Origin: Alphaproteobacteria bacterium
GTDB lineage: Bacteria; Pseudomonadota; Alphaproteobacteria; UBA828
Direction of reading: 5' to 3'
DNA: 64,000 nt
NCBI GenBank assembly: GCA_965221125.1
Contig: CBDCRW010000006.1
Location: forward strand, 320,001 to 384,000
Within the stretch, counting starts at the first letter, position 1. The number at the start of each line of letters is the position of its first letter. The notes under the pieces were generated by a model. The model was not told the DNA's origin. It worked only from the letters and a program-made list of their open reading frames with translations, and ran no database searches. The position numbers were made by a program, and so were the translations under genes. Positions 2,556-51,067 of this stretch are shown here, piece after piece.

Positions 2556-3263
2556 ATGAGCGAGACCCCCACCGCAGCGGAGATCGAGGCGCTGCGCGAC
2601 ATCGATACGCCGACCATCTGCAACCTGCTGGAGATGGTCGTGCCGGAGCGCCGCGGCTACGGCTACACGGTGCAGCATCTGCACTGCCTCTACCCGGACA
2701 TGAAGCCCATCGTCGGCATCGCCAAGACGGCGACGATGCGCGCCAAGAACCCCGCGCGCTGGAGCCCGGCGGAGTACATGGACATCCGCGCGGGCTACTT
2801 CGACTATCTGGCCGAGGGCGAGGCGCCGAAGATCAGCGTGGTGCAGGACGTCGACGAGCGGCCGGGCTACGGCGCCTTCTGGGGCGAGGTCTTCAGCGCC
2901 GTGCACAAGGCGCTCGGCTGCCGCGGCGTGGTGACCAACGGCAGCGTCCGCGACATCGACATGCTGGCGCCCGAGTTCCAGGTGCTGGCTGGGCTGATCG
3001 CGCCGTCGCACGCCTTCGTCCACGTCGCCCATTGGGGCTGCGAGGTCAACGTACACGGCATGGTGGTGCAGGACGGCGACCTGATACACGCCGACCGGCA
3101 CGGCGCGGTCGTGGTCCCGCTCGGGGCGGTGCGCGGCGTGCTCGGCAAGCTCGACCTCATGGTGCGCAAGGAGGCGGTCATCCTGGAAGCGGCGCGGCGC
3201 CCCGATGCCACGGTGGACATGATCAAGGACGCCTGGCAGCGCTCCACGGAGATCCGGGAGTAG
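2556..3263 (+). CDS. RraA/HMG-aldolase-like family protein
   Basis: DTPTICN, AFWGEV, GVVTNGSVRDID and GDLIHADRHGAVVVP motifs. Confidence 0.85.
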   Translation: MSETPTAAEIEALRDIDTPTICNLLEMVVPERRGYGYTVQHLHCLYPDMKPIVGIAKTATMRAKNPARWSPAEYMDIRAGYFDYLAEGEAPKISVVQDVDERPGYGAFWGEVFSAVHKALGCRGVVTNGSVRDIDMLAPEFQVLAGLIAPSHAFVHVAHWGCEVNVHGMVVQDGDLIHADRHGAVVVPLGAVRGVLGKLDLMVRKEAVILEAARRPDATVDMIKDAWQRSTEIRE

Positions 3264-3314
3264 TATCGGCAGGCCGGTCCGAGACGGCGATAGAGGAGGC
3301 CGAGAGTGGCGGAC

Positions 3315-4091
3315 ATGGCGGACACACCGCTCGTCGAGATGAGGAACGTCTTCAAGGCGTTCGGCGGCGTGCATGCGGTGGAGGACGTGACGGTCCAAGT
3401 GGGCGCGGGCGAGGTGCTCGGTATCGTCGGCCACAACGGCGCCGGCAAGTCGACCCTCATCAAGATCCTCTCCGGCGCGCACACCATGGACAGCGGCCAG
3501 ATCCTGATGCGGGGCGAGCCCGTCTCCATCGACAATCCGCGTGTCGCGCGCTCGCTCGGGATCGAGACGCTCTACCAGAACCTCGCGCTGGCCGACAATC
3601 TCGATGCCGCCGCCAACCTGTTCCTCGGGCGCGAGATCACGACGCCCTACGGCAAGCTCGACAACAGGACGATGGCCGAGGCGACGCGCGAGGTGATCGC
3701 CCGCATCAACCCGGAGTTCGCGAACCTCGGCACGCCGGTGCTCAATCTCTCGGGCGGGCAGCGCCAGACCATCGCCATCGCCCGCGCGGTCTACTTCAAC
3801 GCCAGGGTGCTCATCATGGACGAGCCGACGGCGGCGCTCGGCTTGCGCGAATCCGCGGCGTTCAAGGAGCTGGTACTCAGGCTCAAGCAGGAGGGCATCG
3901 GCATGTTCATGATCAGCCACGACCTGCACGACGTCTTCGACATCTCGGACCGCATCTTCGTCATGTCCGGCGGCCGCGAGGTGGGCACGCGGCGCACCGA
4001 CGAGGTGACCAAGGACCAGGTGCTCTCCATGATCATCCTCGGCAAGCAGCCGGGGGAGGAATCGGCCGAGGACCTGGCCAGGCTGCACTAA
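3315..4091 (+). CDS. Sugar-type ABC transporter ATP-binding protein (single NBD)
   Basis: Walker [23 protein letters not shown], signature LSGGQRQ, Walker B LIMDEPT, ISH. Start may instead be the GTG at 3306. Confidence 0.9.
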
Positions 4092-4109
4092 ACGGAGACC
4101 CGCACGGCC

Positions 4110-6029
4110 ATGTCGGCACGCGACCGCACGCTCGCGCTCGAATCCCAGGCCATGAGCCCGGGCGTGGACCCGGTCACGTTCTCCGTACTGCTCCACGCCA
4201 TCGGCGAGGCGTCGAGCGAGATGACGACGGTGCTGCAGCACGGCGCGCGCAGCACCATCATCTCGATCGCCCGCGACCACTCGGCCTCGATCTACACGGC
4301 AGGCGCCGAGATGCTCTACCAGAACGACGCGCTGCCGATACACACCATCGGCGGCGGGCTCAACATCGAGGCGATCAGGGAGGAGTTCGAGGACGACATC
4401 AACGACGGCGATATCTTCATGATCAACGACCCCTACATGGGGACCACCCACAACTCCGATCTCACCGTCGTCATGCCCGTGTTCGTGGACGGCGCGCACC
4501 TGTTCTGGACGTCGATCCGCGCGCACCAAAACAACACCGGCGAGGCCTCCTTCGGGCATGCCTCCACCAACGTCTGGCAGGACGGCATCCAAATCCCGCC
4601 CGTGCGCATCTTCGAGCGCGACAAGGAAATCCGCAGCACGATCCGCTTCTACCTGCGCAACGTCCGCCTTCCCGACTGGCTGGAGGCCGATCTCAGGGCC
4701 ATGGTGGGCGCGGTTCGCGCCGGCGCGGCGCGCCTGCAGGAGATGACGGAGACTCACGGCGTCGATGTCGTCGTGCCGACGCTGGCCGAGATGATCGCCT
4801 ACGCCGAGCGCCGCACGGCCGCCGAGATCCGGGCGCTGCCCGACGGCGTCTATGAGGGCGAAGGGTGGATCGACAGCGACGGTCAGGGCACGCACAACAT
4901 CCGCATCGCGTGCACCGTCACCATCGACGACGACACCATCCACGTGGATTTCTCGGGCAGCGACCCGCAGGCCGGCGGCCACTGCAACGCGACCGTGGCC
5001 ACGATGGAGGCCTGCGGCAGCATCCCGGTGCTTACCATCATCGATCCCACCATCCCGCGCAACGAGGGGTGCACGCGGCGCATCCGGGTGACGGCGCCCG
5101 AGGGCTCGGTGGCGAACGCGCGCTGGCCCGCGAGCACGTGGTGGGGCACCGTCAACCCCGGCGACATCCTGATCGAGGCGGCCTGGAAGGCGCTGGCGCA
5201 GGCCGCGCCGGAACGTGTGCCGGCGGGCTGGGGGCGCTGCCAGCAGCGGCTCTCCATGGGCGACGACAACCGGGTGAGCCCGTCCGTGCCGTTCGCCGCA
5301 TCCATCTTCGTCGCGGCCTCCGGCGGCGGCGCCTGCAACGGCGCCGACGGCTGGCCGCTCACGCAATGCGTCTGCTGCCTGGGCGGGATGCAGACGGAAT
5401 CGGTGGAGATGGTGGAGCTGCTGCAGCCGCTCTTCGTCGAGTACAACGAGTTCCTGGCCGACAGCGCCGGCGCCGGCACCTGGATCGGCGGCCACGGCAT
5501 CGAGACCAGCGTCCGGCCGGTCGACGGCGTCCTCTACATGAAGTTCGAGTACGAGGGCACGTTCAACCCGCCATTCGGCCTGTTCGGCGGCCTGCCCGGC
5601 AACGGGGGCTGCAAGTACAAGGAGCGCGAAGACGGCACGCGGCGCTTCTACATGGCGCACCCGGACCCGGACGTGATCTACGAGGGCGAGCGCTACGTCA
5701 CCGTCACCACCGGCGGCGGGGGTTACGGCGATCCGCTTGAGCGGCCTGCGGACTCGGTGCGGGTGCTGGTGCGGGACGAGCTGCTGACGGTAGAAGCAGC
5801 GCGCGCGAGGTTCGGCGTCGCGATCGATCCGGCGACGCTGGAGGTGGACGAGGGCGAGACCGCGGCGCTGCGTCGCCAGCGCGGGGACGGGGCGGCGCCG
5901 CCGCTCTGGCTGCCGCAGGAGGCCGGCGAGGCCGAATACTGGAGGGAGCGCTACCGCGATGGCGACGAGCTGGTGTGGGAGACCATGCCGGCCGCGCTCA
6001 GGCTCGGCCTCTCAGCCGAGGCGAGGTAG
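4110..6029 (+). CDS. Hydantoinase B/oxoprolinase family protein (copy 2, close paralog of 556..2511)
   Basis: Same motifs as copy 1, with long identical peptide blocks (e.g. MLYQNDALPIHTIGG, FWTSIRAHQNNTGEASFGHAST). Confidence 0.9.
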   Translation: MSARDRTLALESQAMSPGVDPVTFSVLLHAIGEASSEMTTVLQHGARSTIISIARDHSASIYTAGAEMLYQNDALPIHTIGGGLNIEAIREEFEDDINDGDIFMINDPYMGTTHNSDLTVVMPVFVDGAHLFWTSIRAHQNNTGEASFGHASTNVWQDGIQIPPVRIFERDKEIRSTIRFYLRNVRLPDWLEADLRAMVGAVRAGAARLQEMTETHGVDVVVPTLAEMIAYAERRTAAEIRALPDGVYEGEGWIDSDGQGTHNIRIACTVTIDDDTIHVDFSGSDPQAGGHCNATVATMEACGSIPVLTIIDPTIPRNEGCTRRIRVTAPEGSVANARWPASTWWGTVNPGDILIEAAWKALAQAAPERVPAGWGRCQQRLSMGDDNRVSPSVPFAASIFVAASGGGACNGADGWPLTQCVCCLGGMQTESVEMVELLQPLFVEYNEFLADSAGAGTWIGGHGIETSVRPVDGVLYMKFEYEGTFNPPFGLFGGLPGNGGCKYKEREDGTRRFYMAHPDPDVIYEGERYVTVTTGGGGYGDPLERPADSVRVLVRDELLTVEAARARFGVAIDPATLEVDEGETAALRRQRGDGAAPPLWLPQEAGEAEYWRERYRDGDELVWETMPAALRLGLSAEAR

Positions 6030-6174
6030 AGCGTTTCCGTTTGAAACGGAAACGCTCTACGAATTTTTCGCTCACGGCAGCCGGCCGTTGGCCGGCGCCT
6101 CCGCGAGGGCGCCGCATACGCGGCGGGCCGCTGTCGCGGCCTATCGCGCGTCCGTCAAAGTCGGACGCGCGATA
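6026..6174. repeat. Multi-hairpin intergenic repeat, copy 1 (REP/BIME/MITE-like)
   Basis: Perfect 17-bp inverted repeat gtagagcgtttccgttt/aaacggaaacgctctac (6026-6060), several short hairpins, and terminal hairpin tatcgcgcgtccg/cggacgcgcgata (6142-6174). Homologous to 11994-12141. Confidence 0.9.
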
Positions 6175-7420
6175 AGAGCCCGAAGCGGTCGGCGGCGAAG
6201 GGCGCGAGGTTGAGGGCGGGCTCCCGTCCGGCCACGAGATCGGCAATCACCTCGGCGGTCTTCGATGCGCCGATGACACCCTGGTGCCCGTGGCCGAAGG
6301 CGAAGAGCACCGCCGGGTGGCGTGGCGCCCGGCCGAGGATGGGCAGGCTGTCCGGCGTGCACGGCCGCTCGCCCATCCACGTCGTGCGCTCCTCGACATT
6401 GAGAGCGGGCAGCGTGGCCTTGGCGTGGCGGCAGAGCGCGTCGGCGCGCTTGCCGTTGGGCGGCGCGCCATCGCCTGCGAACTCGACGGTGCCGCCGATC
6501 CTGATCCCCATGGCCATGGGGACGATGGTCGCGGAAACGGCCGTGGGCAGGACGACCCTGCCCAGCGAGACGCCGGGGTTGGTGAAGGTCGCGTGGTAGC
6601 CCCGCTGGGAGACGAGAGGGACGCGGTAGCCCAGCCCGGCAACCAGCGGCCGCGACCAGACGCCGGCGGCCACGACGACGGTGTCGTAGTCATGAGTCTC
6701 GCCGCCGAAGTGGATGGCGGCGCTGTCCCTCCCCTGCGCCGAGATGCGCTCGACACGCGCGCGCTGAAAAGTTCCTCCCTGGCGTCCGAAATGCTCGGCA
6801 AGCCCGGTGACGAGGCGGTGGGGGTCGAGGGTGTGGGCCGCCGCCGGCACGAGGAAGCCGCTGGAAAATCCGGGCGCCAACGCGGGCTCCAGGTCGCGAA
6901 GGCCGGCCGCATCGAGCGTCTCCACCGCGTAGCCCGCCGCCCGCTGGAGCGAGACGGCGAGGCTTTCGCCGGCACTCTCCCGCCCCGCGGGGTCGACGTA
7001 GAGCATGCCCTTCTTCTCGACCATTGCGTCGAGCCCGGCTTCCCGCAGGAGCGGCATGAGCAGGTCGAGGGTAGAGCCGTTGAGCGCGGCGAGCGACGCC
7101 GAGATCGCCCGCACCCGGTCTTCCCGGCCCGCGCGCACGAAGGCGACGAGCCAGGGCAGGAGGCGCGTCAGCTCGCGCCAGTCGAGATAGAGCGGGCCGG
7201 TCTCGTCGAGCAGCCAGCGCGGGACCTTCCTCGCAAGGCCCGGCATCGCCACGGGCATCACGGCAGCGGGCGATATCACGCCCGAGTTGCCGTAGGAGGC
7301 GCCCGCGCCCGGCGCATCGCGGTCCAGGAGCGTGACCGCGTGGCCCTCGCGTCTCAGGAAACAGGCAGTAACGGTTCCGACGATGCCGGCACCGATGACC
7401 GCGACGGATCGTGCTGCCAT
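6155..7420 (-). CDS. FAD-dependent oxidoreductase, D-amino acid dehydrogenase (DadA/DAO) family
   Basis: VAVIGAGIVG dinucleotide fold, ASYGNSG, QRGYH, WMGERPCTPDSLP and AFGHGHQG. Confidence 0.85.
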   Translation of the reverse strand: MAARSVAVIGAGIVGTVTACFLRREGHAVTLLDRDAPGAGASYGNSGVISPAAVMPVAMPGLARKVPRWLLDETGPLYLDWRELTRLLPWLVAFVRAGREDRVRAISASLAALNGSTLDLLMPLLREAGLDAMVEKKGMLYVDPAGRESAGESLAVSLQRAAGYAVETLDAAGLRDLEPALAPGFSSGFLVPAAAHTLDPHRLVTGLAEHFGRQGGTFQRARVERISAQGRDSAAIHFGGETHDYDTVVVAAGVWSRPLVAGLGYRVPLVSQRGYHATFTNPGVSLGRVVLPTAVSATIVPMAMGIRIGGTVEFAGDGAPPNGKRADALCRHAKATLPALNVEERTTWMGERPCTPDSLPILGRAPRHPAVLFAFGHGHQGVIGASKTAEVIADLVAGREPALNLAPFAADRFGLLSRVRL

Positions 7421-7537
7421 GAATCACCTTGTCGGGAATGACCTTGACGGCGGGGGACACACGTTACACTAGCCAGCACGCACGGTCCGGCACGGCGTGA
7501 CGTCGGACGGTTGATGATCGCTTCCGGAGGCTTGCGC

Positions 7538-9232
7538 GTGGGAGAGGCATTCGATTACGTGATCGTGGGCGGCGGCTCGGCGGGCGCCGTGCTGGCCCAT
7601 CGCCTCTCGGCCGATCCCGCGACGCGCGTGGCCCTGCTGGAAGCGGGCCCGGACACGCCGCCGGAGACGGTGCCGGACATCATCCTCGACAGCTATCCGG
7701 GGCGCGCCTACTTCGATCCGCGCTTTCACTGGCAGGACCTGCGCGTCTACAACCGCTCGCCCGAGATCGACCCCTCGCAGAAGCCGAGCCGCTTCGAGCA
7801 GGCCCGCGTCATGGGCGGCGGCTCCTCCATCAACGGCCAGTTCGCCGTGCGCGGGATGCAGGGCGACTACGACGAGTGGGAGGAGATGGGGCTCCCCGGC
7901 TGGTCCCACGCGGGCCTTCTGCCCTACTTCAACAGGCTGGAGCGGGACGTCGATTTCGCCGGCGACGGCCACGGCAGCGCCGGGCGCATCCCGGTGCGCC
8001 GGCTCTTCCCGGAGGAATGGGGCGGGTTCAGCCGCGCGGCGCTCGCCGCGATGGAGGACAACGGCCTGCCCCTCTGCGGCGACGTGAATGGCGACGACGC
8101 CGACGGCTGCTATCCCGTGCCGCTCTCGAACCAGTACGGGCGGCGCGTCTCCACGGCGATCGGCTACCTCGACGCCGCGACCCGGCGGCGGCGCAATCTC
8201 GCCATTCACGCGGAGACCACGGTGACGCGCATCGTCGTCGACGGCGGTCGGGCGCGCGGGGTCGAGGCGGTGAGCCGGGGGAAGACCCTCCGCTTCGACG
8301 CGCGGGAGACCATCGTCTCCGCCGGCGCGCTTCACTCCCCTGCCCTGCTGCTCCGCGCCGGGGTCGGCCCGGCGGAGCACCTGCGCGCGCTCGGGATCGA
8401 GGTGGCGGCCGACCTGCCGGGCGTCGGCGGCAACCTGCTGGAGCACGCGAGCGTCAGCGTCGCGGCGCACCTGAAGCCCCGCGCCCGCGTGCCGGCCGGG
8501 CAGCGCCGCCACATCTATTTCGGCGCGCGCTACTCCTCCGGGCTGCAGGGCTGCCCGCCGGGGGACATGCTCTTCATGCCGACCAATTCCGCCGGCTGGC
8601 ATCCGCTGGGCCAAGCGATGGGCACCATGCTCCTGGCGGTCAACAAATCGTACTCGCAGGGCACCGTGCGCCTCGCCACGCCCTCGCCCTTCGACGAGCC
8701 CCGCGTCGACCTCAACATGCTCTCCGACGAGCGCGATCTCGTGCGCCTTGTCGACGGCTTCCGGCGCCTCTACAGGGTCATGGAGTCGCCGGCCGTGAAG
8801 GATCAGATAACGCTGTGGTTCCTCGCCGGCTATTCGGACGCCGTCCGCCGCCTGATGGTGCCCTCGGCCGGGACCTGGCTGAAGACGGCGACGGCACGCG
8901 CGCTGCTCGACCTGGGCGGCCCCGGTCGCGTGCTGCTGCGCCGCAAGCTCACCGGCGGGCGCGACGTGCACCGCATGGTCAAGGACGAGAGCGCGCTCGC
9001 GGACTGGATCAAGGCATCGGTCTGGCCGGGCTGGCACGTGTGCGGGACCTGCCGCATGGGCCCGGACGGCGACCCGCTCGCCGTGCTCGACGGCGAGTGC
9101 CGCGTGCGCGGCGTGGCGGGGCTCCGCGTGGTCGATGCCTCGGTGATGCCGACGATCCCGCGCGCCAACACCAACCTCACGACCATCGCGATCGCCGAGA
9201 AGATCGCCGACGGGATGCGAACGCGGGCGTGA
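7538..9232 (+). CDS. GMC oxidoreductase (HMF oxidase / aryl-alcohol oxidase-like)
   Basis: FDYVIVGGGSAG, QARVMGGGSSING, LPGVGGNLLEH, catalytic WHVCGTCRMG and ANTNLT. GTG at 7538 chosen as start; the ORF opens at 7511. Confidence 0.88.
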   Translation: MGEAFDYVIVGGGSAGAVLAHRLSADPATRVALLEAGPDTPPETVPDIILDSYPGRAYFDPRFHWQDLRVYNRSPEIDPSQKPSRFEQARVMGGGSSINGQFAVRGMQGDYDEWEEMGLPGWSHAGLLPYFNRLERDVDFAGDGHGSAGRIPVRRLFPEEWGGFSRAALAAMEDNGLPLCGDVNGDDADGCYPVPLSNQYGRRVSTAIGYLDAATRRRRNLAIHAETTVTRIVVDGGRARGVEAVSRGKTLRFDARETIVSAGALHSPALLLRAGVGPAEHLRALGIEVAADLPGVGGNLLEHASVSVAAHLKPRARVPAGQRRHIYFGARYSSGLQGCPPGDMLFMPTNSAGWHPLGQAMGTMLLAVNKSYSQGTVRLATPSPFDEPRVDLNMLSDERDLVRLVDGFRRLYRVMESPAVKDQITLWFLAGYSDAVRRLMVPSAGTWLKTATARALLDLGGPGRVLLRRKLTGGRDVHRMVKDESALADWIKASVWPGWHVCGTCRMGPDGDPLAVLDGECRVRGVAGLRVVDASVMPTIPRANTNLTTIAIAEKIADGMRTRA

Positions 9233-9275
9233 TGCGGCACACTGTCGCCCGATCTGGAATTGCGAACCGGGGAGA

Positions 9276-10226
9276 GTGCTGATGGCACGGGTCACGGAAG
9301 CGGCGCCTGACGGCGTCGTCAGGCTGGAGAACCGCTTTGCGGACGGCGCCGCCTTCATCGACGGGGCCTTCGTGCCGATCGCCGAGGCGCGGATACCGAT
9401 CCTCGACTGGGGCTTCACGCGCTCGGACGTCACCTACGACGTGGTGCACGTCTGGGGCGGCAAGTTCTTCCGGCTCGACCATCATCTCGACCGCTTCGAG
9501 AAGAGTCTCGCCAGCGTCCGCATGAGCATTCCCCACGAGCGCGACGAGGTCGTCGCGATCCTGATGCGGCTGATGCGCCTCAGCCAGCTGCGCGAGGCCT
9601 ACGTCGAAGTGCTGTGCACCCGCGGCATGCCGCCCAAGGGCACCCGCGACCCCCGTGCCTGCGAGAACCGCTTCATCGCCTTTGTCATCCCCTTCGTCTG
9701 GATCGCGGACGAGGAGATGCGCGCCCGCGGCATCAACCTGCACCTCAGCTCCTACCTGCGGATTCCGCCGGGCTCGGTCGACCCCACCGCCAAGAACTTC
9801 CACTGGGGCGACATGATCCGCGCGCTGTTCCAGAGCTACGAGCGGGGCTGCGACATGCCGGTGGTCGTCGACCTCGACGGCAACATCGCCGAGGGGCCGG
9901 GCTTCAACGTCTTCGCCGTCAAGGGCGGCACCGCGACGACGCCGGGCGGCACCTGCCTCGAAGGCATCACGCGGCGGACCGCGCTCGACCTCTTGGGCGA
10001 ACTCAACGTGAAAGGGGAGGTCGGCATCGTCTCGCCGGACGACCTGCGCGGCGCCGACGAGGTCTTCGTCACCAGCACGGCGGGCGGCATCCTGCCGGTG
10101 ACGAAGATCGACCACGAGCCGGTGGGGGACGGCGCCGTCGGCCCGGTGACCGAGAGGCTGCGCGCCCTCTACTGGGAGCGGCACGAGGACGACAGCGAGG
10201 CGACGCCGATCGACTACGAGGGCTGA
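9276..10226 (+). CDS. Fold-type IV PLP aminotransferase, probable (R)-selective amine transaminase
   Basis: LDWGFTRSDVTYDVVHVW, FFRLDHHLDRF, AYVEVLCTRG, catalytic K in DPTAKNFHWGD, EGPGFN, LEGITR and TSTAGG. Confidence 0.85.
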   Translation: MLMARVTEAAPDGVVRLENRFADGAAFIDGAFVPIAEARIPILDWGFTRSDVTYDVVHVWGGKFFRLDHHLDRFEKSLASVRMSIPHERDEVVAILMRLMRLSQLREAYVEVLCTRGMPPKGTRDPRACENRFIAFVIPFVWIADEEMRARGINLHLSSYLRIPPGSVDPTAKNFHWGDMIRALFQSYERGCDMPVVVDLDGNIAEGPGFNVFAVKGGTATTPGGTCLEGITRRTALDLLGELNVKGEVGIVSPDDLRGADEVFVTSTAGGILPVTKIDHEPVGDGAVGPVTERLRALYWERHEDDSEATPIDYEG

Positions 10227-10285
10227 GCCGCGGCGCACGGCATCAAGGTCTTCATTCGCCACTGGCCGCGGGCGCGGCGCGCGCC

Positions 10286-11953
10286 ATGATGATCGGCGGC
10301 ATACCGGGGCCCAAGCGCATCGGAGTCGGGCTCGAGGCCAGGGCCGGGCTGCTCCGGGGTGCCGCAACGGTGGGCCGCATCGTCGGCACCACCCTCGGCC
10401 CCGGCGGGCGCGCGGTGCTGATCGAGCGCCGCCATGCCCAGCCCTGGGTCTCCACCGACGGCTACACCATCGCGCGGCACATCGACCTCGAGGACCGCTT
10501 CGAGGACATGGGCGGCCGCCTGATCCGCCACGTCGGCTCGAAGGTGAGCGACGAGGTGGGCGACGGCTCCACCACCGCGATGGTGCTGGCGGCTGCGCTC
10601 ATGGAGGAAGGCCACCGCGCGACCGCCGCCGGCGCCGACCCCATGAGCGTCATGCGGGGGATGGAGCGCGGGCTCGCCGCAGCCACGGAAGCGCTGGACG
10701 CGCAGTCCCGCCCCCTGCCGGCGGAGGGCGGCCTGGAGCGCGTGGCCCGGCTCGCGGCGGGCGGCGACGAGGAGATCGGGCGCCACCTCGCCCATGCCAT
10801 CCGCCGGGTCGGCCCCGACGGGGTGGTGACCATCGAGGAGGCGCAGGGCGTCGAGACCGAGCTCTCGGTGCACGAGGGCATGAGCTTCGACACGGGCTAC
10901 GTCTCGCCCGCCTTCGTCACCGATACGGACGACATGACGGCCACCCTGGAAGACGCCTACGTGCTGATGCACGAGAAGACGATCTCCAGCGTGGACGCGA
11001 TCGAGCCCGCGCTCCGCGCCTTCGCCAAGTCGTCGCACACGCTGCTGATCGTGGCGGAGGACGTAGTGGGCGATGCGCTGGCGACGCTGATCGTCAACAA
11101 GCAGCAGGGTGGGCTCCGCGTCGCCGCGGTCAAGGCGCCGGGCTTCGGGCGCTGGCGCAAGCTCATGCTGGAGGACATCGCGGTCATGACCGGCGGGGAG
11201 ATCGTCACCGACGAGCTCGGCAACAAGCTGGAGAACCTGAAGCCCGCGATGATGGGCGCGGCGAAGCGGGTGCACGTGGCCCGCGACCGCACCGCCATCG
11301 TGGACGGCGCGGGCGATGCCGAGGAGATCGCGCAGCGCTGCAACATGCTGCGGCGCGAGGCGGAGGCCGAGAAATACCTGAGCTTCGACCGCGAGAAGCT
11401 GCAGGAGCGCCTCGCCCGCCTCGCCGCCGCCATCGCGCACTTGCGGCTTGGCGGCGCGACCGAGACGGAGCTCCGCGCGCGGAAGGAACGCGCGACGGAC
11501 GCCTTGAACGCTGCCCGCGCAGCGGCGGCGGAGGGCGTGGTGCCCGGCGGCGGCGTGGCGCTCGTGCAGGCCTCCCGCGCGCTTCGCGACGTCGATGCCC
11601 GCAGCGACGACGAGGCCATGGGCGTCTCTGCGCTGGCGGCGGCACTCAAGGCGCCGATGCGGCGGATCGTGGAGAACGCCGGCGGCGAGGGCACCTACGC
11701 CGTCGCCCGCGCGCTCGCCCAGGACAATCCGCGCTGGGGCTTCGACGCGGCCGCACGGCACTTCCGCGACCTGCCGCGCGCCGGCATCGCCGATCCGACG
11801 CGGGTGGTGCGCACCGCGCTGCGGACGGCCGTCCCGGCCGCAGCCCGCGCCATCGCTGCCGAAGCCGTGATCGCCGGCAGGCCGCAGCCCGCCGAGCCCG
11901 AGACCCAGGCGCTCCCCGAATCGGACCTGCCGGGCGGGCAGAAAGAGGGATAG
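10286..11953 (+). CDS. Divergent GroEL/Cpn60-like chaperonin paralog (555 aa)
   Basis: TLGPGGR, VGDGSTTA, EGMSFDTGYVSP, KAPGFG, KLQERLARL, EGVVPGGG and GIADPTRV motifs. ATG at 10286 within ORF 9614..11953. No GGM tail and no adjacent groES. Confidence 0.9.
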   Translation: MMIGGIPGPKRIGVGLEARAGLLRGAATVGRIVGTTLGPGGRAVLIERRHAQPWVSTDGYTIARHIDLEDRFEDMGGRLIRHVGSKVSDEVGDGSTTAMVLAAALMEEGHRATAAGADPMSVMRGMERGLAAATEALDAQSRPLPAEGGLERVARLAAGGDEEIGRHLAHAIRRVGPDGVVTIEEAQGVETELSVHEGMSFDTGYVSPAFVTDTDDMTATLEDAYVLMHEKTISSVDAIEPALRAFAKSSHTLLIVAEDVVGDALATLIVNKQQGGLRVAAVKAPGFGRWRKLMLEDIAVMTGGEIVTDELGNKLENLKPAMMGAAKRVHVARDRTAIVDGAGDAEEIAQRCNMLRREAEAEKYLSFDREKLQERLARLAAAIAHLRLGGATETELRARKERATDALNAARAAAAEGVVPGGGVALVQASRALRDVDARSDDEAMGVSALAAALKAPMRRIVENAGGEGTYAVARALAQDNPRWGFDAAARHFRDLPRAGIADPTRVVRTALRTAVPAAARAIAAEAVIAGRPQPAEPETQALPESDLPGGQKEG

Positions 11954-12141
11954 AGCGCCGCTGACTTTGACGGACGCGCGATAGGCCGCCCTGCCAGAAC
12001 GTTTCCGTATTGCACGGAAACGCTCTGGCCGTTTGTCGCTCACGGCAGCTGGCCTGCGGCCAGCGCCTCCGCGAGGGCGCCGCATTCGCGGCGGGCCGCT
12101 ATCGCGGCCTAGAACGCGTCCGCAAAAGCGGACGCGTTCTA
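11951..12141. repeat. Multi-hairpin intergenic repeat, copy 2, plus an inverted partial copy
   Basis: 11994-12141 aligns with 6026-6174. 11963-11989 (gactttgacggacgcgcgataggccgc) is the reverse complement of 6136-6162. Begins at the GroEL-like TAG and ends at the MlaC stop (CTA 12139-12141). Confidence 0.9.
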
Positions 12142-12807
12142 TTCCGCCGTGGCGCCGATGGGCGCCTCGATGCGCGCGCGGATGTCGCCGAGCAGGCCGT
12201 TGAAGCCCTTGCGGTTGATGACCGAGGCGAACTCGGCCCGGTGGGTGAGCAACATGCTGATGCCCTCGACGTAGAGGTCGACGACCCGGTGGCCGCCGTC
12301 CCTCGGGCGGACGCGGAAATCGAGCTCGACGGGGTCGGCGCCGGATGGCCGGGACACCTGCGCGCGCACGATGGTGTCGCCGCTCTCGTCGGCGATGGCG
12401 GCGTGCACCGTGAACACCTCGCCGCCGTAGGAGTATGAATCGAACCGGCTCGCGTAAACGCGCGCGAGAAAGTCGAGCAGGACGGCCGTGAATTCCGCGC
12501 GCTGGTCGTCGCTCGCCGTCCGCCAGTGCTTGCCCAGCACGAAGCGGGCAACGATCGGGATGTCGAAGCCCCGGCCCAACACGTCACGGAACGCGACCTC
12601 GCGCTCGGCCAGAGTGCTGTTCGCCTTATCGCCCAGGATGGCCATGACCTCGTCCCCGACACCCTGGACGAAGGCGACCGCCGCGTCGTCCGACGCCGCC
12701 GTCCGCTGCCCTGCGGCCGCGATCATGAGGGCGGCAATCAGGGCGCCGGCCAGCAGGGCGCGCCGGGACAGGCGGCTGAAGCGCTTCGGATTCGATCTTC
12801 GTGACAC
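12139..12807 (-). CDS. mlaC: MlaC/Ttg2D-family phospholipid-binding periplasmic protein
   Basis: FDIPIVARFVLGKHWR and VVDLYVEGISMLLTHRAEFASVI motifs; twin-arginine-like signal SRRALLAG. GTG start at 12807 is inferred. Confidence 0.85.
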   Translation of the reverse strand: MSRRSNPKRFSRLSRRALLAGALIAALMIAAAGQRTAASDDAAVAFVQGVGDEVMAILGDKANSTLAEREVAFRDVLGRGFDIPIVARFVLGKHWRTASDDQRAEFTAVLLDFLARVYASRFDSYSYGGEVFTVHAAIADESGDTIVRAQVSRPSGADPVELDFRVRPRDGGHRVVDLYVEGISMLLTHRAEFASVINRKGFNGLLGDIRARIEAPIGATAE

Positions 12808-44698: not shown

Positions 44699-45304
44699 AT
44701 TTGTGACCCCGCATCGTTCGACGCGTTCTCCACCGTGAGCACGCTCGGACTGGCGTCGAGGGCCATGGCGGCAGGGAACGCGCGCGAACCGTTCATGGCG
44801 TGTTCCTGACCCCGCGGTCCCCGTGTCCGTATTCGGCACGAAAGCCGCGACGGCCGGCGCGTACGTTCTGCCGTCGAGAGGGCAAGAAAACTCCACGGCG
44901 GATGCGCGCCGACCGCCGCACTCGGTATCTATCTCTTGCAAGTATACCGGCATATCAACGAATATAGTGCGTATAATGAGTTGAATTAGGCGAATAATTG
45001 GAGAATTTCTGCCGTCCCATCCCCGGTCGCTCAGGTTGTGGAACAACTGCGCGCAGTGAACGCAGCATCGGCCTGAGCGGGTACGGGCTACGGGCGCCGA
45101 CCCCGCCCCGCCGTCCCTTTGGCTCGGATGCCGGGCGGAAGCGGCATAAAGTCGCCTTATATTCGCATAACTCGCGCCACTATAGTCATACATTTCGTAT
45201 AACCATTTTGTATACTGCCATTCCGTTGAAGCTATGACCGCAACGGTCGGCGTGCCGCCATCGCAGGCCGGGTCCATCCGGCTTCGTGTGAAAGGGGATA
45301 CTCG

Positions 45305-48300
45305 ATGCTCCCGGCGATTCGCGGCACGATGCGCCTTCTCCGCTCCACGGCTGCCCACGCCGACAGAGTCGTTCGCGTCGGCCGCTTGCCCCGTTGCGGC
45401 CTGCGCCTGCCGTCCGGCGCGATGATGTCCGGCGTTTTCGTGCTGCCGGCGTGCCTGCTGCTCGCGGCCTTCGCGCTCGCGCCCTCTCCCGCCGCGGCGC
45501 AGTCGGAAGGCGAGCTGCGCATCGTCCCGCTGGAGGCGGACGTGCCCGAGAGGGGGCGGCTGGAGATCTTCCACACGCCAACCGGCGGAACGGGCCGGTG
45601 GGGACCCATCTGCGACGATGCCTTCCGCATGGACGAGGCGAAGGTGGCCTGCAAGCAGATGGGCTACCGGGACGCCGAGAACTACATCCTGCGCTACAGC
45701 AAGGACTACGCCCATACCGAGGCGGCGTACTGGCTCGACGACATGGACTGCAACGGCTCGGAATCGAAGTTCACCGAATGCCGGCAGCAGAACACGAGGG
45801 GAGGGGGATACTTTTCGGAGCTGCAATGGGGCCAGCACGACTGCAACCGCCTCGAGCAGGTGGGCCTGCAATGCACGGCCGATACGGCCCTGAACTACAC
45901 CCGGGTCGACAAGCGCGCGCTCACGGTGGTCGAAGGGCTGAGCGCGACCTTCAAGGTCTGGCTGGGCAAGGCGCCGAGCGGCACCGTCACGGTCACGCTG
46001 AGCGGCCATAGCGGGACCGACCTGACCCTGAAGGACAGCGACAGCAACACGATATCGTCGCTCACCTTCACGACGTCGAACTGGAGCGATCCGCAAACAG
46101 TGACGGTGGAGGCGGCAAGCGACACCGACACGACCGACGACACGGGCATCACGATCGGCTTCAGCGCGGCCGGCGGCGGTTACGCCGCCGCGACTGATCA
46201 GCAAGACGTGCGGGTCACGATCAGGGACGATGACGTCAAGGGGTTCGCGATCGCGCCGACGAGCCTGAACTCGTTCGAGACCGAGGAGCTGAACCGGAGG
46301 CAGGTTGGAGGAGTCGCGGCGGGCGACCGCACCGTCAGCAGTACGGTCGGAGACCCGCCGGTGACCAGCTACACGGTGAGGATGAAGGGCCCGCCCTCGG
46401 CAAACGTCACGGTCGCTCTCGCGGTCACCGCCAATACGCCCGGCGGCACCGGGGCGGCCGATGTCTCCTTCGAGCCCTCGACCCTCACCTTCACGACGTC
46501 CGACTGGAGCACGCCACAGACCGTGACGCCGAAGGTGACCAAAGATGACGACACCGTCGCCGAAACGGTCACGATCTCGCACACCGTCACCAGCACCGAC
46601 AGCGGCTACGACGGCATGGACCTCCCGGACGTGACGATGGAGGTGAAGGAGACGGAACCGCCCTACACCTCCGGCCTTTCGGTGTCCAATGCCACTGCGA
46701 ACGAGGACGATGACCCCCCCGAGCTCGATTTCGAGGTGACGTTGTGGCCTGCGTCGACGGAGACGGTGACGGTGAAGTACAAGACCATCGACCGCACGGC
46801 GACGGCGGGCGACGACTACATCCACACCAGCGGAACGCTCACCTTCGAACCGGGCGTGACGGGGCTGAAGGTCCGGGTGACGATTATCGACGACGACGTG
46901 GAGGACGACGGGGAGACGCTGTGGCTCAAACTGACGGACCCCGTTGGTGCGTTCTTTGACGATTCGTGGGGGCTGGGCACGATCGACAACACCGAGACGG
47001 GCGGCGACAACACGGCGCCGACGGGACTGCCGACGATTTCGGGCACGGCACAGGTCGGCGAGACGCTGACGGCGTCGTCCGCGGGGATCGCGGACGCGGA
47101 CGGTCTTACGAACGCGACCTTCGCCTGGCAGTGGATCGCGGACGACGAGGACATCGCGGACGCGACCGACGCGACCTGGACGCTGACCGCCGCCGAGCAG
47201 GGCAAGACGGTCAAGGTGCGGGCGACCTTCACCGACGACGGGGGCACGGAGGAGACGCTGACGAGCGCCGCCACGGAGGCGGTGGCGGCGGCCGTTCAGC
47301 AGCAGGTTGCGAGCGACACCGAAGCGCCGACGGTTACGGTGACGAGCGATGCGACCGGGCCGGTGACGGGCGAGTTCGACGTCACGGTGACGTTCAGCGA
47401 GCCGGTGACGGGTTTCGAGATGTCGGAGCTCTCCATCGTCAACGGCACGGCGTCCGCCATGACCGGCAACGAGGCGGGCGACACGTACACGGTGACCATC
47501 ACGCCCGACGGCGGTGCTTCGGGGACGCTCTCGGTGGAGGTTCCGGCGGGGGTGGCGAGCGATGCGGCGGAGAACGCGAACACAGCCTCGGGCGCATTCG
47601 GCATCGCGGTGCGGACCGCGCTGACGGCGTCGTTCTCGTCGGTCGCGCGAGAGCATGACGGGTCGAGCGTCTTCCTGGTGCCGCTCGACTTCAGCGAGGA
47701 CGTGGAGGGGCTGAGCTACCGGACGTTGAAGTTCGGGGGCATCGAGGTGACCGGCGGGACGGTGAAGAGGGCGAAGCGCCGCCCGCCCGGGTCCGGGCAG
47801 GGCAAGTACTGGACGATCCATGTCAAGCCGAATACGGACGGCGACGTGACGGTCGTGCTGCCGGAGACGACGGACTGCGCCGCGACGGGGGCCGTCTGCA
47901 CTCAGGACGGGCGGATGCTCGCGAACGCGTCGCGCGCGACGATCCCGGGACCGGCGTCCACGCCGCTCGTGTCGATCGCGGCGGCGACGTCGCCGGTGAC
48001 GGAGGGGACGGCGGCGTCGTTCACGCTCAGCCGCAGGGGCGGCCCGGCGACGGCGCTCACGGTGGATGTGAGCGTGAGCGAAGACGGGGCGATGGTGGAC
48101 GGGACGGCGCCGTCGACGGCGACCTTCGCCGCGAACTCGACGACGGCGACGCTCACGGTGGCGACGGCGGACGACGAGGTCGCGGAGTCGGCGAGCGTCG
48201 TCACGGCGACGATTTCGTCCGGGACCGGCTACGAGGCCGATTCGGGCGCGGAGAGCGCGTCTGTGACGGTCGAGGACGACGACGAGGCGCCAGCCAACGC

Positions 48301-51067
48301 CGCGCCGACGGGCCTGCCGACGATTTCGGGCACGGCGACGGTCGGCGAGACGCTGACGGCATCGGAAGCGGGGATCGCGGATGCGGACGGGCTGACCGAT
48401 GCGACCTTCGCCTGGCAGTGGATCGCGAACGATGCGGACATCGCGGACGCGACCGACGCGACCTACACACTGACCTCCACCGAGGAAGGCAAGACGGTCA
48501 AGGTGCGGGTGACGTTCACCGACGACGGCGGCAAGGAGGAGACGCTGGTAAGCGCCGCCACGGCGGAGGTCGCTGCGGAGGTTCCGCAGGTCTCGATCGC
48601 GGCGACCTCCTCGCCGGTGACGGAAGGCACGGCGGCGGCGTTCACGCTGAGCCGCACGGGCGGCACGACGGCGGCGCTGACGGTTACGGTAAGCGTGAGC
48701 GAGGCGGGCACCGTGCTGTCGGGGACGCCGGCTTCCACGGTGACCTTCGTGGCCGGGAATGCCACGGCCACGCTCAGCCTTGCTACCGAGAACGATGCCG
48801 TGGACGAGGCCGACGCCAGGGTGACGGTGACGGTCGCCGCCGGGACCGGCTACACGGTGGACCCGGACGCAGGCACGGCCGGGGTCGACGTCTACGACAA
48901 CGACGCGGCGGCCACGGGCGAGGCGACGGTGACGACGCTCTGGTCCACGACGCTCCAATGGGCGGACTGGAACGGCAACGTGATCGCCAACGCGGCGGAC
49001 TTCACGAACGCGACGTGGTCCGAGGACGGGAGCGACTTCAAGGTCTGGTACTTCGCCTACGATCCGTGGGACGGCACTCTGTGGTTGCGGCTGAACTCGT
49101 CCCAGTCCGGCGGGGACATTCCCCGTGCGGGCGAGCTGACGCTTCACATCGGCGACGAGACGGTGGAGGCGGGCGATGCGCTGTCGGACTTCGCCGCGGG
49201 CAGGATCGGAACCGTCAGCGGGCTCGACCGGGACTGGGAGGAAGGCGACCGGGTATCGGTGCGCCTGACGCGCACGGTTGCGGCGGAGACGACCGTCTCC
49301 CTGCCGGGCCTCTCGGTGGTGGACGCACAGGTGCGCGAGGCTGACGGCGCGGCGCTGCCGTTCGTCGTGACGCTGGGCGACGTGCAGACCTCTGCGGTCT
49401 CGGTGCGCTACGCGACATCGGACGGCACGGCGACGGCGGGCCTGGACTACGAGGCGGTGTCCGGGATGCTGCGTTTCGAGCCGGGCCAGACCTCGAAGAC
49501 GGTGTCGGTTCCGGTGATCAACGACGAGCACGACGACGACGGGGAGACGCTGACGCTGACGCTGTCGCAGCCGTTCGGGGCCACGCTTGCCGACGGCACC
49601 GCGACGGGGACGATCGTGAACACCGACCCGATGCCGCAGGCGTGGATTGCGCGCTTCGGGCGCACGGTGGCGGAACAGGTGCTCGAAGCGGTCGAGAGCC
49701 GGATGCAGGCGCCGCGGACGGCGGGCGTCGAGGTGAGCCTCGGCGGCCGGCAGGTCGGCGGCGCGGCCACGGAGGACGGCGCGCAGACAGTAGCCGGTCG
49801 CAACCCGGCCGAGCTGTACGGCAAGGGAGCCGATCCGGAGCAGCGGCTCGGCCTGGAAGCGCAGACGATGACGCAGCGCGACTTCCTGCTCGGCTCGTCC
49901 TTCTCGCTCACGGGCGGGACGGAGCGTGACGGCGCCTACGCGCTGTGGGGCCGGGGCGCCGTGACGCGGTTCGACGGCCGCGACGGCGCGCTTTCACTGG
50001 ACGGCGAGGTGACCAGCGCCATGCTGGGCGCCGACTGGAGCCAAGATGCACTGATGGCGGGGCTGGTGGTCTCGCACAGCCGGGGCGAGGGCAGCTACGC
50101 CGGAGAGGGCGGCAACGGCGCGGTGCGCTCCTCGCTGACCGGTCTCTATCCCTGGGGCCGCTATGCGCTGAGCGAGCGGGTCTCGGTCTGGGGCGTCGCG
50201 GGCCACGGCGAGGGCACGCTGACGCTCACGCCCGAAGGCGAGGCGCCGATCGACACGGACCTCGACCTCAGGATGGCCGCGGCGGGCCTGCGCGGCGTGC
50301 TGGTGCAGGCGGCGGAGACGGGCGGGCTCGAGCTTGCGGTGAAGTCCGATGCCCTGGGCATGCAGACGAGCACGGCGAAGGCGGACGGCCTTGCGGCGGC
50401 GGATGCCGACGTGACGCGTCTCAGGCTCGGTATCGAGGGCTCGCTACCCTCCCGCTTCGCGGGCGGGGCGAGCCTCGTGCCGAGCGTCGAGATCGGGGTG
50501 CGCCGGGACGGCGGCGATGCCGAGACCGGGTTCGGTGTCGACATCGGCGGCGGTCTGTCCTGGTCGGACTCGCAGCGCGGCCTCTCGGCCGAGTTCCGGG
50601 TCCGCGGCCTGCTGAGCCATCAGGCGGACGGGTTCCGGGAGCGCGGCTTCTCGGGCTCTCTCTCGTGGGATCCGACGCCCGACACGGCGCGCGGCCTCAG
50701 TTTCTCGATGAGCCAGACGGTGGGCGTTCAGGCGGCGGGCGGCATGGACGCCCTGCTCGAAGGCGACACGCTGGCGGGGCTCGCGGCCAATGACGACGGG
50801 CAAGACGAGTTTGCGCGGCGCCGTTTCGAGATGAGTCTCGGCTACGGCTTCGGCGTGTTCGGGGACAGGTTCACGGCGACGCCGGGGGTCGGGCTGGGTT
50901 TGTCGGACGACCATCGGGAGTACCGGCTCGGCTGGGGGCTCGGGCTCGTCCGCGGAGGCTCGCTGTCGATGGACTTCGATCTGTCGGGCTTGCGGCGCGA
51001 GGCGGCAAACGACGAGGGGGCGGCGCCCGAGCACGTGCTGACGCTGCGAGGGCAGGTCCGCTGGTGA
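45305..51067 (+). CDS. Large autotransporter-like surface protein: SRCR domain + Ig-like/Calx-beta repeats + C-terminal beta-barrel
   Basis: RBS AAAGGGG and signal peptide ending AAAQ. SRCR at about 45510-45875, Calx-beta twice, Thr-rich beta repeats, and an amphipathic beta-strand C-terminal domain ending in W. Confidence 0.85.
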   Translation: MLPAIRGTMRLLRSTAAHADRVVRVGRLPRCGLRLPSGAMMSGVFVLPACLLLAAFALAPSPAAAQSEGELRIVPLEADVPERGRLEIFHTPTGGTGRWGPICDDAFRMDEAKVACKQMGYRDAENYILRYSKDYAHTEAAYWLDDMDCNGSESKFTECRQQNTRGGGYFSELQWGQHDCNRLEQVGLQCTADTALNYTRVDKRALTVVEGLSATFKVWLGKAPSGTVTVTLSGHSGTDLTLKDSDSNTISSLTFTTSNWSDPQTVTVEAASDTDTTDDTGITIGFSAAGGGYAAATDQQDVRVTIRDDDVKGFAIAPTSLNSFETEELNRRQVGGVAAGDRTVSSTVGDPPVTSYTVRMKGPPSANVTVALAVTANTPGGTGAADVSFEPSTLTFTTSDWSTPQTVTPKVTKDDDTVAETVTISHTVTSTDSGYDGMDLPDVTMEVKETEPPYTSGLSVSNATANEDDDPPELDFEVTLWPASTETVTVKYKTIDRTATAGDDYIHTSGTLTFEPGVTGLKVRVTIIDDDVEDDGETLWLKLTDPVGAFFDDSWGLGTIDNTETGGDNTAPTGLPTISGTAQVGETLTASSAGIADADGLTNATFAWQWIADDEDIADATDATWTLTAAEQGKTVKVRATFTDDGGTEETLTSAATEAVAAAVQQQVASDTEAPTVTVTSDATGPVTGEFDVTVTFSEPVTGFEMSELSIVNGTASAMTGNEAGDTYTVTITPDGGASGTLSVEVPAGVASDAAENANTASGAFGIAVRTALTASFSSVAREHDGSSVFLVPLDFSEDVEGLSYRTLKFGGIEVTGGTVKRAKRRPPGSGQGKYWTIHVKPNTDGDVTVVLPETTDCAATGAVCTQDGRMLANASRATIPGPASTPLVSIAAATSPVTEGTAASFTLSRRGGPATALTVDVSVSEDGAMVDGTAPSTATFAANSTTATLTVATADDEVAESASVVTATISSGTGYEADSGAESASVTVEDDDEAPANAAPTGLPTISGTATVGETLTASEAGIADADGLTDATFAWQWIANDADIADATDATYTLTSTEEGKTVKVRVTFTDDGGKEETLVSAATAEVAAEVPQVSIAATSSPVTEGTAAAFTLSRTGGTTAALTVTVSVSEAGTVLSGTPASTVTFVAGNATATLSLATENDAVDEADARVTVTVAAGTGYTVDPDAGTAGVDVYDNDAAATGEATVTTLWSTTLQWADWNGNVIANAADFTNATWSEDGSDFKVWYFAYDPWDGTLWLRLNSSQSGGDIPRAGELTLHIGDETVEAGDALSDFAAGRIGTVSGLDRDWEEGDRVSVRLTRTVAAETTVSLPGLSVVDAQVREADGAALPFVVTLGDVQTSAVSVRYATSDGTATAGLDYEAVSGMLRFEPGQTSKTVSVPVINDEHDDDGETLTLTLSQPFGATLADGTATGTIVNTDPMPQAWIARFGRTVAEQVLEAVESRMQAPRTAGVEVSLGGRQVGGAATEDGAQTVAGRNPAELYGKGADPEQRLGLEAQTMTQRDFLLGSSFSLTGGTERDGAYALWGRGAVTRFDGRDGALSLDGEVTSAMLGADWSQDALMAGLVVSHSRGEGSYAGEGGNGAVRSSLTGLYPWGRYALSERVSVWGVAGHGEGTLTLTPEGEAPIDTDLDLRMAAAGLRGVLVQAAETGGLELAVKSDALGMQTSTAKADGLAAADADVTRLRLGIEGSLPSRFAGGASLVPSVEIGVRRDGGDAETGFGVDIGGGLSWSDSQRGLSAEFRVRGLLSHQADGFRERGFSGSLSWDPTPDTARGLSFSMSQTVGVQAAGGMDALLEGDTLAGLAANDDGQDEFARRRFEMSLGYGFGVFGDRFTATPGVGLGLSDDHREYRLGWGLGLVRGGSLSMDFDLSGLRREAANDEGAAPEHVLTLRGQVRW
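47009..48571 (+). repeat. Intragenic duplicated ~92-aa module (47009-47284 and 48296-48571)
   Basis: NTAPTGLPTISGTAQVGETLTAS...EETLTSAAT versus NAAPTGLPTISGTATVGETLTAS...EETLVSAAT, with high DNA identity. Confidence 0.9.

Follow-up and report, generated by a model that had tools for sequence, protein, structure and literature searches.

A divergent GroEL paralogue gene paired with a putative (R)-amine transaminase gene, beside a separable catabolic block, in an alphaproteobacterial lineage

Extra GroEL copies that have neither an accompanying groES gene nor a Gly-Met tail are already known, among them mycobacterial Cpn60.1/GroEL1, Myxococcus GroEL2, the rhizobial copies, and chlamydial GroEL2/3. 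Client specialisation has been proposed for such copies, and the rhizobial ones are co-regulated with nif/nod genes. Here, we describe a divergent GroEL paralogue encoded in a 64,000-nt stretch from an Alphaproteobacteria bacterium (contig CBDCRW010000006.1, positions 320,001 to 384,000; hereafter, the window), which resembles these copies in being an extra one without groES, in carrying a tail that is not of the Gly-Met type, and in existing beside canonical groESL operons. It differs from them in being tied to one metabolic gene, that of a fold-type-IV transaminase, wherever a genome of the genus contains the two, and in sharing an upstream element with that gene; against the chlamydial GroEL2/3 models, it scores 204 and 167 bits, versus cutoffs of 600. 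In the literature searched, we found no paper on a GroEL gene linked to that of a class-IV or amine transaminase, and none on an extra GroEL copy that shares an upstream element with one metabolic gene throughout a lineage.

The genus set comprised 21 genomes, namely the window's own (G000) and 20 congeners; by their record titles, all genomes used are metagenome-assembled, and the G000 assembly is 92% complete, with 5.8% contamination. The transaminase query was run against the 20 congeners and 20 further relatives, the GroEL paralogue query against the genomes of the order and 300 genomes sampled from the class, and the queries for two neighbouring genes, encoding a GMC oxidoreductase and a DAO-family oxidoreductase, across the family. 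A transaminase orthologue (81-97% identity) is present in 18 of the 20 congeners (19 of the 21 genus genomes, counting G000), and the paralogue is present in 17 of the 20 (18 of 21). In all 18 genus genomes with both, the two genes are adjacent and co-oriented, at a spacing of ∼20-100 nt in 10 long loci; in G014 and G015, both are absent. An earlier reading of the window, made from its letters alone (the original prediction), had proposed that the chaperonin is dedicated to the transaminase, and the comparative data fit that proposal: adjacency holds in 17 of 17 congeners and the genome itself, and also in a second genus (G077), where the pair lies beside a divergent aldehyde:ferredoxin oxidoreductase gene. 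Metagenome loci agree, in that 5 of the 13 found carry the paralogue (85-96% identity) and all three of those with upstream sequence have the transaminase directly upstream.

The surroundings of the pair change from genome to genome. Upstream of the transaminase, 10 genus genomes have a TauD-family dioxygenase gene, 2 have the GMC gene, 3 have genes for an ABC binding protein and permease, and 4 have none of these; downstream, the neighbours vary among an FAD-linked oxidase, PhyH, asparaginase, and MlaC. In G000, the FAD-oxidase and PhyH genes that follow the pair in congeners are now ∼150 kb away and there is no TauD orthologue, and the pair is still together. We also took a census of neighbours within 8 kb of 80 transaminase-homologue loci (52-97% identity) in species genomes, by tblastn with the window's proteins at E 1e-10, a search that divergent DAO-family genes may escape. 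GroEL occurs in nine of these loci, all among the 10 with at least 80% identity. Across eight pairwise comparisons with G000, dN/dS (the ratio of nonsynonymous to synonymous substitution rates) lies at 0.10-0.23 for the transaminase and at 0.14-0.33 for the paralogue, so both genes are functional and under purifying selection.

In the interval in which the pair lies, two units that are inherited independently of each other very probably meet. Unit A, an accessory catabolic block of 13 kb, begins 3.9 kb upstream of the window and occupies it up to ∼9203; unit B, positions 9231-11953 and the repeat that follows, is a bicistron specific to the lineage, with a conserved element of its own at the upstream end. 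The features are as follows:

3-566, + strand: 3′ part of hydA (Hydantoinase_A family), unit A; its start lies upstream of the window; partial match to NCBIfam caprolactamase alpha
556-2511, + strand: hydB1 (Hydantoinase_B), unit A; Pfam E 8e-129; NCBIfam caprolactamase beta, 311 bits versus a cutoff of 1000
2556-3263, + strand: RraA-like aldolase/decarboxylase family gene, unit A; PF03737, E 2.5e-18
3306-4091, + strand: ABC ATPase with a single nucleotide-binding domain, sugar-type, unit A; NCBIfam RbsA/XylG-type matches, all below cutoff
4110-6029, + strand: hydB2 (second Hydantoinase_B), unit A; Pfam E 9e-134; 75% identity to hydB1
6027-6170, no strand: ∼145-nt intergenic repeat, copy 1; 121 blastn hits in the genome
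6155-7420, − strand: DAO-family FAD oxidoreductase, unit A; PF01266, E 8.6e-61
7511-9232, + strand: GMC oxidoreductase, last gene of unit A; GMC_oxred_N and GMC_oxred_C
9231-9249, + strand: conserved element GATGCGGCACACTGTCGCC, 19 nt; overlaps the GMC stop codon and lies 32 nt before the transaminase ATG
9282-10226, + strand: fold-type-IV transaminase; PF01063 (Aminotran_4), E 1.6e-45; alternative start GTG 9276
10286-11953, + strand: divergent GroEL paralogue; Cpn60_TCP1; TIGR02348, 585.4 bits versus a cutoff of 582.1
11996-12136, no strand: ∼145-nt repeat, copy 2, right after the GroEL stop codon; 83% identity (blastn) to the copy at 6027-6170

The original prediction had located the last four of these genes correctly, and its family assignments (a DAO/DadA-like protein, an HMFO-like GMC protein, a fold-IV protein of (R)-amine-transaminase type, and a divergent GroEL) agree with the open reading frame list, Pfam, and PDB, as does the shared orientation of GMC, transaminase, and GroEL. 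Its spacings were right for GMC-transaminase (43-49 nt) and transaminase-GroEL (59 nt) and too wide for the divergent DAO/GMC gap, which is ∼90 nt (7421-7510) rather than ∼120 nt. Because the window is G+C-rich (∼0.61-0.75 in its first 20 kb), real reading frames were picked by third-position G+C. The transaminase most likely starts at ATG 9282, after the candidate ribosome-binding site GGGGAGAG, rather than at GTG 9276; the paralogue starts at ATG 10286, and a 779-aa open reading frame from 9614 is an over-extension. A terminator scan found no terminator-like site between GMC, transaminase, and GroEL. It did find a 16-bp perfect hairpin with a T-run at 6026-6060, in the first arm of repeat copy 1, a structure resembling a terminator of hydB2 on one strand and of DAO on the other. 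A sigma-70 promoter scan found nothing, and an Rfam search of 5900-12300, at E values up to 0.1, gave no match.

The boundary between the units is marked by a deletion. A metagenome contig (L116), 94-96% identical to the window's own contig (C6), is collinear with C6:311160-316148 and then jumps to 329204-331981, so that it is without 13,055 nt running exactly from the binding-protein start to the GMC end. It retains the final 29 nt of GMC, stop codon included, which indicates that the block was deleted in L116, while the pair was kept. The same 29-nt GMC remnant led us to reject the opposite polarity, an insertion in G000. Contigs of four metagenome runs mapped on 4100-12100 are short and of mixed strains, none of them spanning a junction.

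Immediately 3′ of the deletion junction lies GATGCGGCACACTGTCGCC. In an alignment of the 100 nt upstream of the transaminase from 26 loci, its core is kept in all 26 transaminase-orthologue loci, whether the gene upstream is TauD, GMC, an ABC permease, or another, and it is also kept in the other genus. On the strength of this conservation, we read GATGCGGCACACTGTCGCC as a putative promoter or operator for unit B. A sigma-54 promoter was considered for it and rejected on inspection, the GG-to-GC spacing being one base short of the consensus.

Unit A has its own distribution. It contains genes for a sugar-type ABC binding protein and permease, a caprolactamase-like HydA, HydB1, an RraA-like protein, an ABC ATPase, HydB2, DAO, and GMC; those lying before the window on the + strand are the binding protein (Peripla_BP_4) and permease (BPD_transp_2), after which comes HydA, whose full-length orthologue in G004 has Hydant_A_N, Hydantoinase_A, and Hydant_A_C. 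Orthologues of DAO (80-86% identity) and GMC (88-91%) occur in 8 of the 21 genus genomes (G000, G004, G005, G007, G009, G013, G014, and G020), always head-to-head and ∼100 nt apart, and six further loci that we examined have the same order, Perm-HydA-HydB1-(extra gene)-RraA-ABC-HydB2-DAO-GMC. The block adjoins the transaminase in only two of the seven genomes with both (G000 and G020). In G004, one chromosome carries both, ∼2 Mb apart; in G005, G007, G009, and G013, the two are on different contigs; G014 has the block and neither the transaminase orthologue nor the paralogue; and at least 12 congeners have the transaminase without the block. DAO and GMC are thus members of the Hyd/ABC block and not partners of the transaminase. 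The extra gene in the block order, between hydB1 and the RraA-like gene, is present in L110 (5199-6341) and L111-L115 and missing in G000 and G020; its product has Ala_racemase_N and D-ser_dehydrat domains, and its best NCBIfam match is the 3-hydroxy-D-aspartate aldolase BhcC, below cutoff.

The two FAD enzymes of unit A resemble known families only in part. The DAO protein reaches only the broad DAO Pfam family, and its best solved relatives are glycine oxidases; a DadA-family label, as originally given, stands in so far as the protein is a DadA-like member of that Pfam family and fails at both NCBIfam DadA cutoffs (NF001933, 202 bits versus 383; NF009074, 146.5 bits versus 494). For the GMC protein, the best PDB match is 5-hydroxymethylfurfural oxidase (HMFO; 6f97/4udp, E 1.9e-115), with the next family at 6.5e-73. 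The FAD-binding N-terminus and the WH and ANTN stretches, to which we presumptively assign a catalytic role, align with HMFO (4udp and 6f97), whereas the window's protein has a ∼35-residue insert between query positions 428 and 480, reaches no NCBIfam equivalog cutoff, and has Hyd, ABC, and DAO genes as its partners rather than furan-catabolic genes. In view of the insert and the different gene context, we advise caution in assuming an HMFO-type substrate for it.

(R)-Selective amine transaminases are valued industrial catalysts. The window's transaminase appears to be of this type: solved enzymes of that type make up its best ∼20 PDB matches (E 2e-82 to 1e-69), ranking ahead of branched-chain and D-amino-acid transaminases, and its Aminotran_4 domain spans residues 54-278. 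By the motif definitions given in PMC8048526, motif 1, [HR]-x4-Y-x-[VT]-x-[HSAPT], is present as RSDVTYDVVH (residues 47-56), and motif 2, [YF]-V-[EAQN], as YVE (107-109); the carboxylate trap RxH of D-amino-acid transaminases is found nowhere in the protein, and there is no YxR of branched-chain aminotransferases at motif 2, with Y.R strings occurring only elsewhere (158 and 186). The catalytic lysine, K171, is invariant in 25 of 25 aligned homologues and aligns with the KN of the (R)-selective chains. The protein thus shares with enzymes of solved structure (8zm7, 6xwb, 4ce5, 4cmd, and 3wwh) the Aminotran_4 fold, both Hohne motifs, and the aligned lysine; it differs in coming from an alphaproteobacterial clade that is known only from metagenome-assembled genomes and that, alone among the 80 loci, has a GroEL gene after the transaminase.

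Other homologues of this transaminase stand in other settings. G000 has nine fold-IV matches in all, including four further paralogues like (R)-selective amine transaminases (36-44% identity), at sites C6:436531-438373, C6:688071-688949, and C3:199766-200632; two of the four form a convergent (tail-to-tail) pair. At C3:15037-18459, a second DadA-like gene (31% identity, with one in-frame TAG) lies near a fold-IV transaminase gene (30% identity). In a clade of 18 loci from alphaproteobacterial metagenome-assembled genomes (within L059-L090), homologues with 54-58% identity lie in conserved synteny directly downstream of a gene for a ∼700-aa molybdopterin oxidoreductase with an Fe4S4 domain. No universal neighbour partner emerged across the 80 homologue loci.

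The paralogue belongs to the GroEL family, marginally by TIGR02348 and clearly by PRK12849 (606 bits versus 352). It is 46% and 45% identical to the two canonical GroELs of the genome, and its best solved relative is an alphaproteobacterial Cpn60 (1iok). The nucleotide-site motifs TLGP, D52, GDG(S)TT, GGG, and D398 are kept, with T89S; D398 is kept in 11 of 12 orthologues and is G in the other. Substitutions are K34G, K51T, R197T, Y203A, and L234E, with Y203 replaced by Ala in 9 of 12, and there is a 6-residue N-terminal extension. All 12 paralogue sequences end in a Pro/Glu-rich tail instead of a Gly-Met tail, whereas both canonical copies carry GGM repeats. Both canonical groEL genes also have groES and the heat-shock element CIRCE (perfect at one and with two mismatches at the other). 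Upstream of the paralogue, the transaminase stands in the place of groES, and there is no CIRCE, the remaining CIRCE-like site being a single weak, distant one.

The paralogue is confined to three genera of one family. In the class sample, a match above 49% identity was found in only 1 of 300 genomes (G077), and the other 299 are the class-wide negatives; two of these are the unpublished G069 and G268, whose matches, at 46-47% identity, are canonical GroELs. At E 1e-170, none of 21 genomes from the other seven genera of the family and none of 5 from the order's other family gave a match to it. A large protein collection yielded 157 clusters at E 1e-150 among 8000 scored, of which the best 120 reach identities of 78% or more without a name among them.

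Taken together, these results are best explained, in our judgment, by two units, the second of which includes a co-expressed, client-dedicated chaperonin. We consider this combined account somewhat probable, as a compromise between the two-unit architecture, which we hold firmly, and the tentative proposal that the fold-IV transaminase is the client of the paralogue, to which we give slightly less than an even chance. The conserved element would drive one transcript of both unit B genes, independent of heat-shock control by HrcA/CIRCE. The paralogue, which would still be an ATP-driven chaperonin though remodelled in its apical face and tail, would help the transaminase encoded on that mRNA to fold or assemble, perhaps with GroES supplied by one of the canonical groESL operons. 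Both the co-transcription of the two genes and the chaperonin activity of the paralogue are what we infer from this arrangement. The strictest version, in which the paralogue no longer serves general proteostasis and is an enzyme-specific private foldase, with no heat-shock control, own groES, or Gly-Met tail and with an altered apical face, on which the transaminase would depend in order to fold or assemble, appears rather doubtful. A prediction of a complex between the transaminase (25-row alignment) and the paralogue (17-row alignment), run without controls, gave no support.

Several observations weigh against this account. The congener G019 has an intact transaminase (92% identity) and cleanly lacks the GroEL gene. 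In G013 (L028, C10; ∼9125), the transaminase is 2 nt shorter and split into two frames, with GroEL intact, so that it is either a pseudogene or an assembly error. In a third genus (G329), transaminase and paralogue are on different contigs, and the paralogue (L026, C9; 9855-17253) is convergent on a HydA-HydB-class-III-aminotransferase operon, ∼100 nt from its end, an arrangement in keeping with a client that is not the fold-IV transaminase. One clade of the transaminase tree (SH-aLRT 93) consists of the GroEL-linked rows together with G019 and L040; the linkage thus arose once, and the adjacent cases are not independent. The residue changes are numbered as in E. coli via the canonical copies, and the mapping, as well as the roles of the named residues, are ones that we assume to be right. 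No RNA run containing the locus is among the sequencing runs listed, which leaves co-transcription inferred; the DNA runs with the locus bear coded names or the label 'sponge metagenome'. Finally, since no terminator is predicted between GMC and transaminase in G000 and G020, read-through from unit A, and with it some functional coupling, is possible there.

The main rival to the transaminase as client is a client among the large, ATP-dependent Hyd-type (caprolactamase/oxoprolinase-like) enzymes, or a whole lactam-plus-transaminase pathway, which the paralogue would serve without being specific to the transaminase. A pathway of this kind is described in Pseudomonas jessenii, where, according to PMC6061476 and PMC8453981, caprolactam is degraded by an ATP-dependent caprolactamase, CapA/CapB, and an aminotransferase. 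CapA/CapB are the best-named relatives of the window's HydA/HydB, a lactamase-type enzyme lies near the transaminase in many loci, and G329 has a class-III aminotransferase with HydB and HydA in one operon; on the other hand, these Hyd proteins score 227-624 bits versus 1000 (best HydA/HydB scores, 624 bits for alpha and 318 bits for beta, both below the NCBIfam caprolactamase cutoffs), and the window's transaminase is of fold IV and not class III. The gene set of the G329 operon resembles that of the caprolactam pathway.

In favour of a Hyd-type client, the G329 paralogue is unlinked from the fold-IV transaminase and lies close to the Hyd operon end, and G019 has the transaminase without the paralogue. 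Of the 27 loci with at least 64% identity, 14 also have HydA/HydB within 8 kb of the transaminase, as against none of the 53 more distant ones, and the lineage is very rich in Hyd genes (in 4.6 Mb, 32 HydA and 38 HydB tblastn matches that span over half of the query). That richness cuts the other way as well, for with 32 HydA copies we estimate that a copy would be expected by chance within 8 kb at about one locus in eight, so the association of lactamase and transaminase may be inflated, and we down-weighted Hyd nearness as strong evidence for a lactam pathway. Moreover, the nearby Hyd genes belong to different paralogue groups (mutual identity, 33-41%), they lie at varying distances and in varying orientations, whereas directly upstream there is always the transaminase, and in G004 the pair has no Hyd gene within ∼8 kb. 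On balance, we regard a Hyd-type client as improbable, if less so than the two readings that follow.

A second alternative, which is close to the original prediction, is an amine cascade in this strain, in which GMC, transaminase, and GroEL form one operon: amine and pyruvate would yield an aldehyde and D-alanine, GMC would oxidise the aldehyde, and DAO would regenerate pyruvate. Co-orientation, the gaps of 43-59 nt with no terminator-like site between them, the full motifs of the transaminase, and HMFO as the nearest solved relative of GMC all favour it, as does the retention of the same juxtaposition in the sister species G020. The wider idea, that the transaminase lies beside an aldehyde oxidiser in general, finds weak and scattered support, in the aldehyde:ferredoxin oxidoreductase beside the pair in G077, in aldehyde dehydrogenase genes directly downstream of more distant homologues in G029 and G025, and in aldehyde dehydrogenases within 8 kb in 4 of the 80 loci. 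Against the cascade, the juxtaposition is found in two of the seven genomes with both units; the block occurs without a transaminase orthologue (G014) and the transaminase without the block (at least 12 congeners); in the near-identical L116, the block is deleted and the pair still present; a conserved element of its own lies upstream of the transaminase; and DAO is under both DadA cutoffs. Within 8 kb of the 80 homologue loci, GMC and DAO are each found in two, and both in one, the G020 record.

Thus, the four genes stand together only in G000 and G020, and at 1 of the 80 loci; the units are separate in five genomes, and G014 has unit A by itself. The original prediction had joined DAO, GMC, and transaminase into one amine-to-acid module with D-alanine recycling and had staked it on a search for the co-occurrence of these genes in other genomes. 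They fail to co-occur, and since DAO and GMC do not accompany the transaminase, the module falls, by its own terms, with respect to these two. A cascade may be running in G000 and G020 if read-through occurs, the evidence for it being adjacency in these two sister species; we consider it unlikely as an explanation of the locus. The tidy story of amine, aldehyde, and acid with D-alanine recycling is a product of chance juxtaposition in two sister species and should not enter annotation as a role for the enzyme class. The caprolactamase-like, lactam-opening neighbours are a better, if still weak, lead to natural substrates.

No better supported, and likewise unlikely in our view, is a third, general or condition-specific, chaperonin placed behind the transaminase by inherited chance, which is in keeping with the commonness of multiple chaperonins in bacteria and the single origin of all linked cases, but not with the survival of the pair through at least four changes of setting upstream and several downstream, and through a 13-kb deletion right beside it, nor with its 20-100 nt gap without a terminator, the joint absence of both genes in G014 and G015, and the lack of a heat-shock control element of the paralogue's own. 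In PMC11978752, bacteria with multiple copies are reported always to keep at least one chaperonin with a Gly-Met tail.

If the transaminase does prove to be the client, a private foldase operon would offer a ready-made helper for expressing bacterial (R)-amine transaminases, and the pair would be a tractable model of how a general chaperonin turns client-specific. A survey of eight (R)-selective amine transaminase candidates reports that four of the eight gave no soluble protein in E. coli, three of those four being from Gram-negative bacteria (PMC8048526).

Two further features of the window and its genome are recorded here. The ∼145-nt repeat that flanks the DAO gene and closes unit B contains several G+C-rich hairpins and gives 121 and 122 blastn hits in the 4.6-Mb genome, with a further copy at C6:313059-313202; it has no Rfam match, and its depth in four metagenome runs is 20- to 40-fold higher in this bin. 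Lying at gene ends, it may act as a terminator or as a REP/MITE-like element, and copy 2 (11996-12136) probably marks the end of the transcription unit; downstream of the paralogue, on the opposite strand, is an MlaC gene. Farther along the window, positions 45230-51067 on the + strand hold a 1946-codon open frame with gene-like codon bias.

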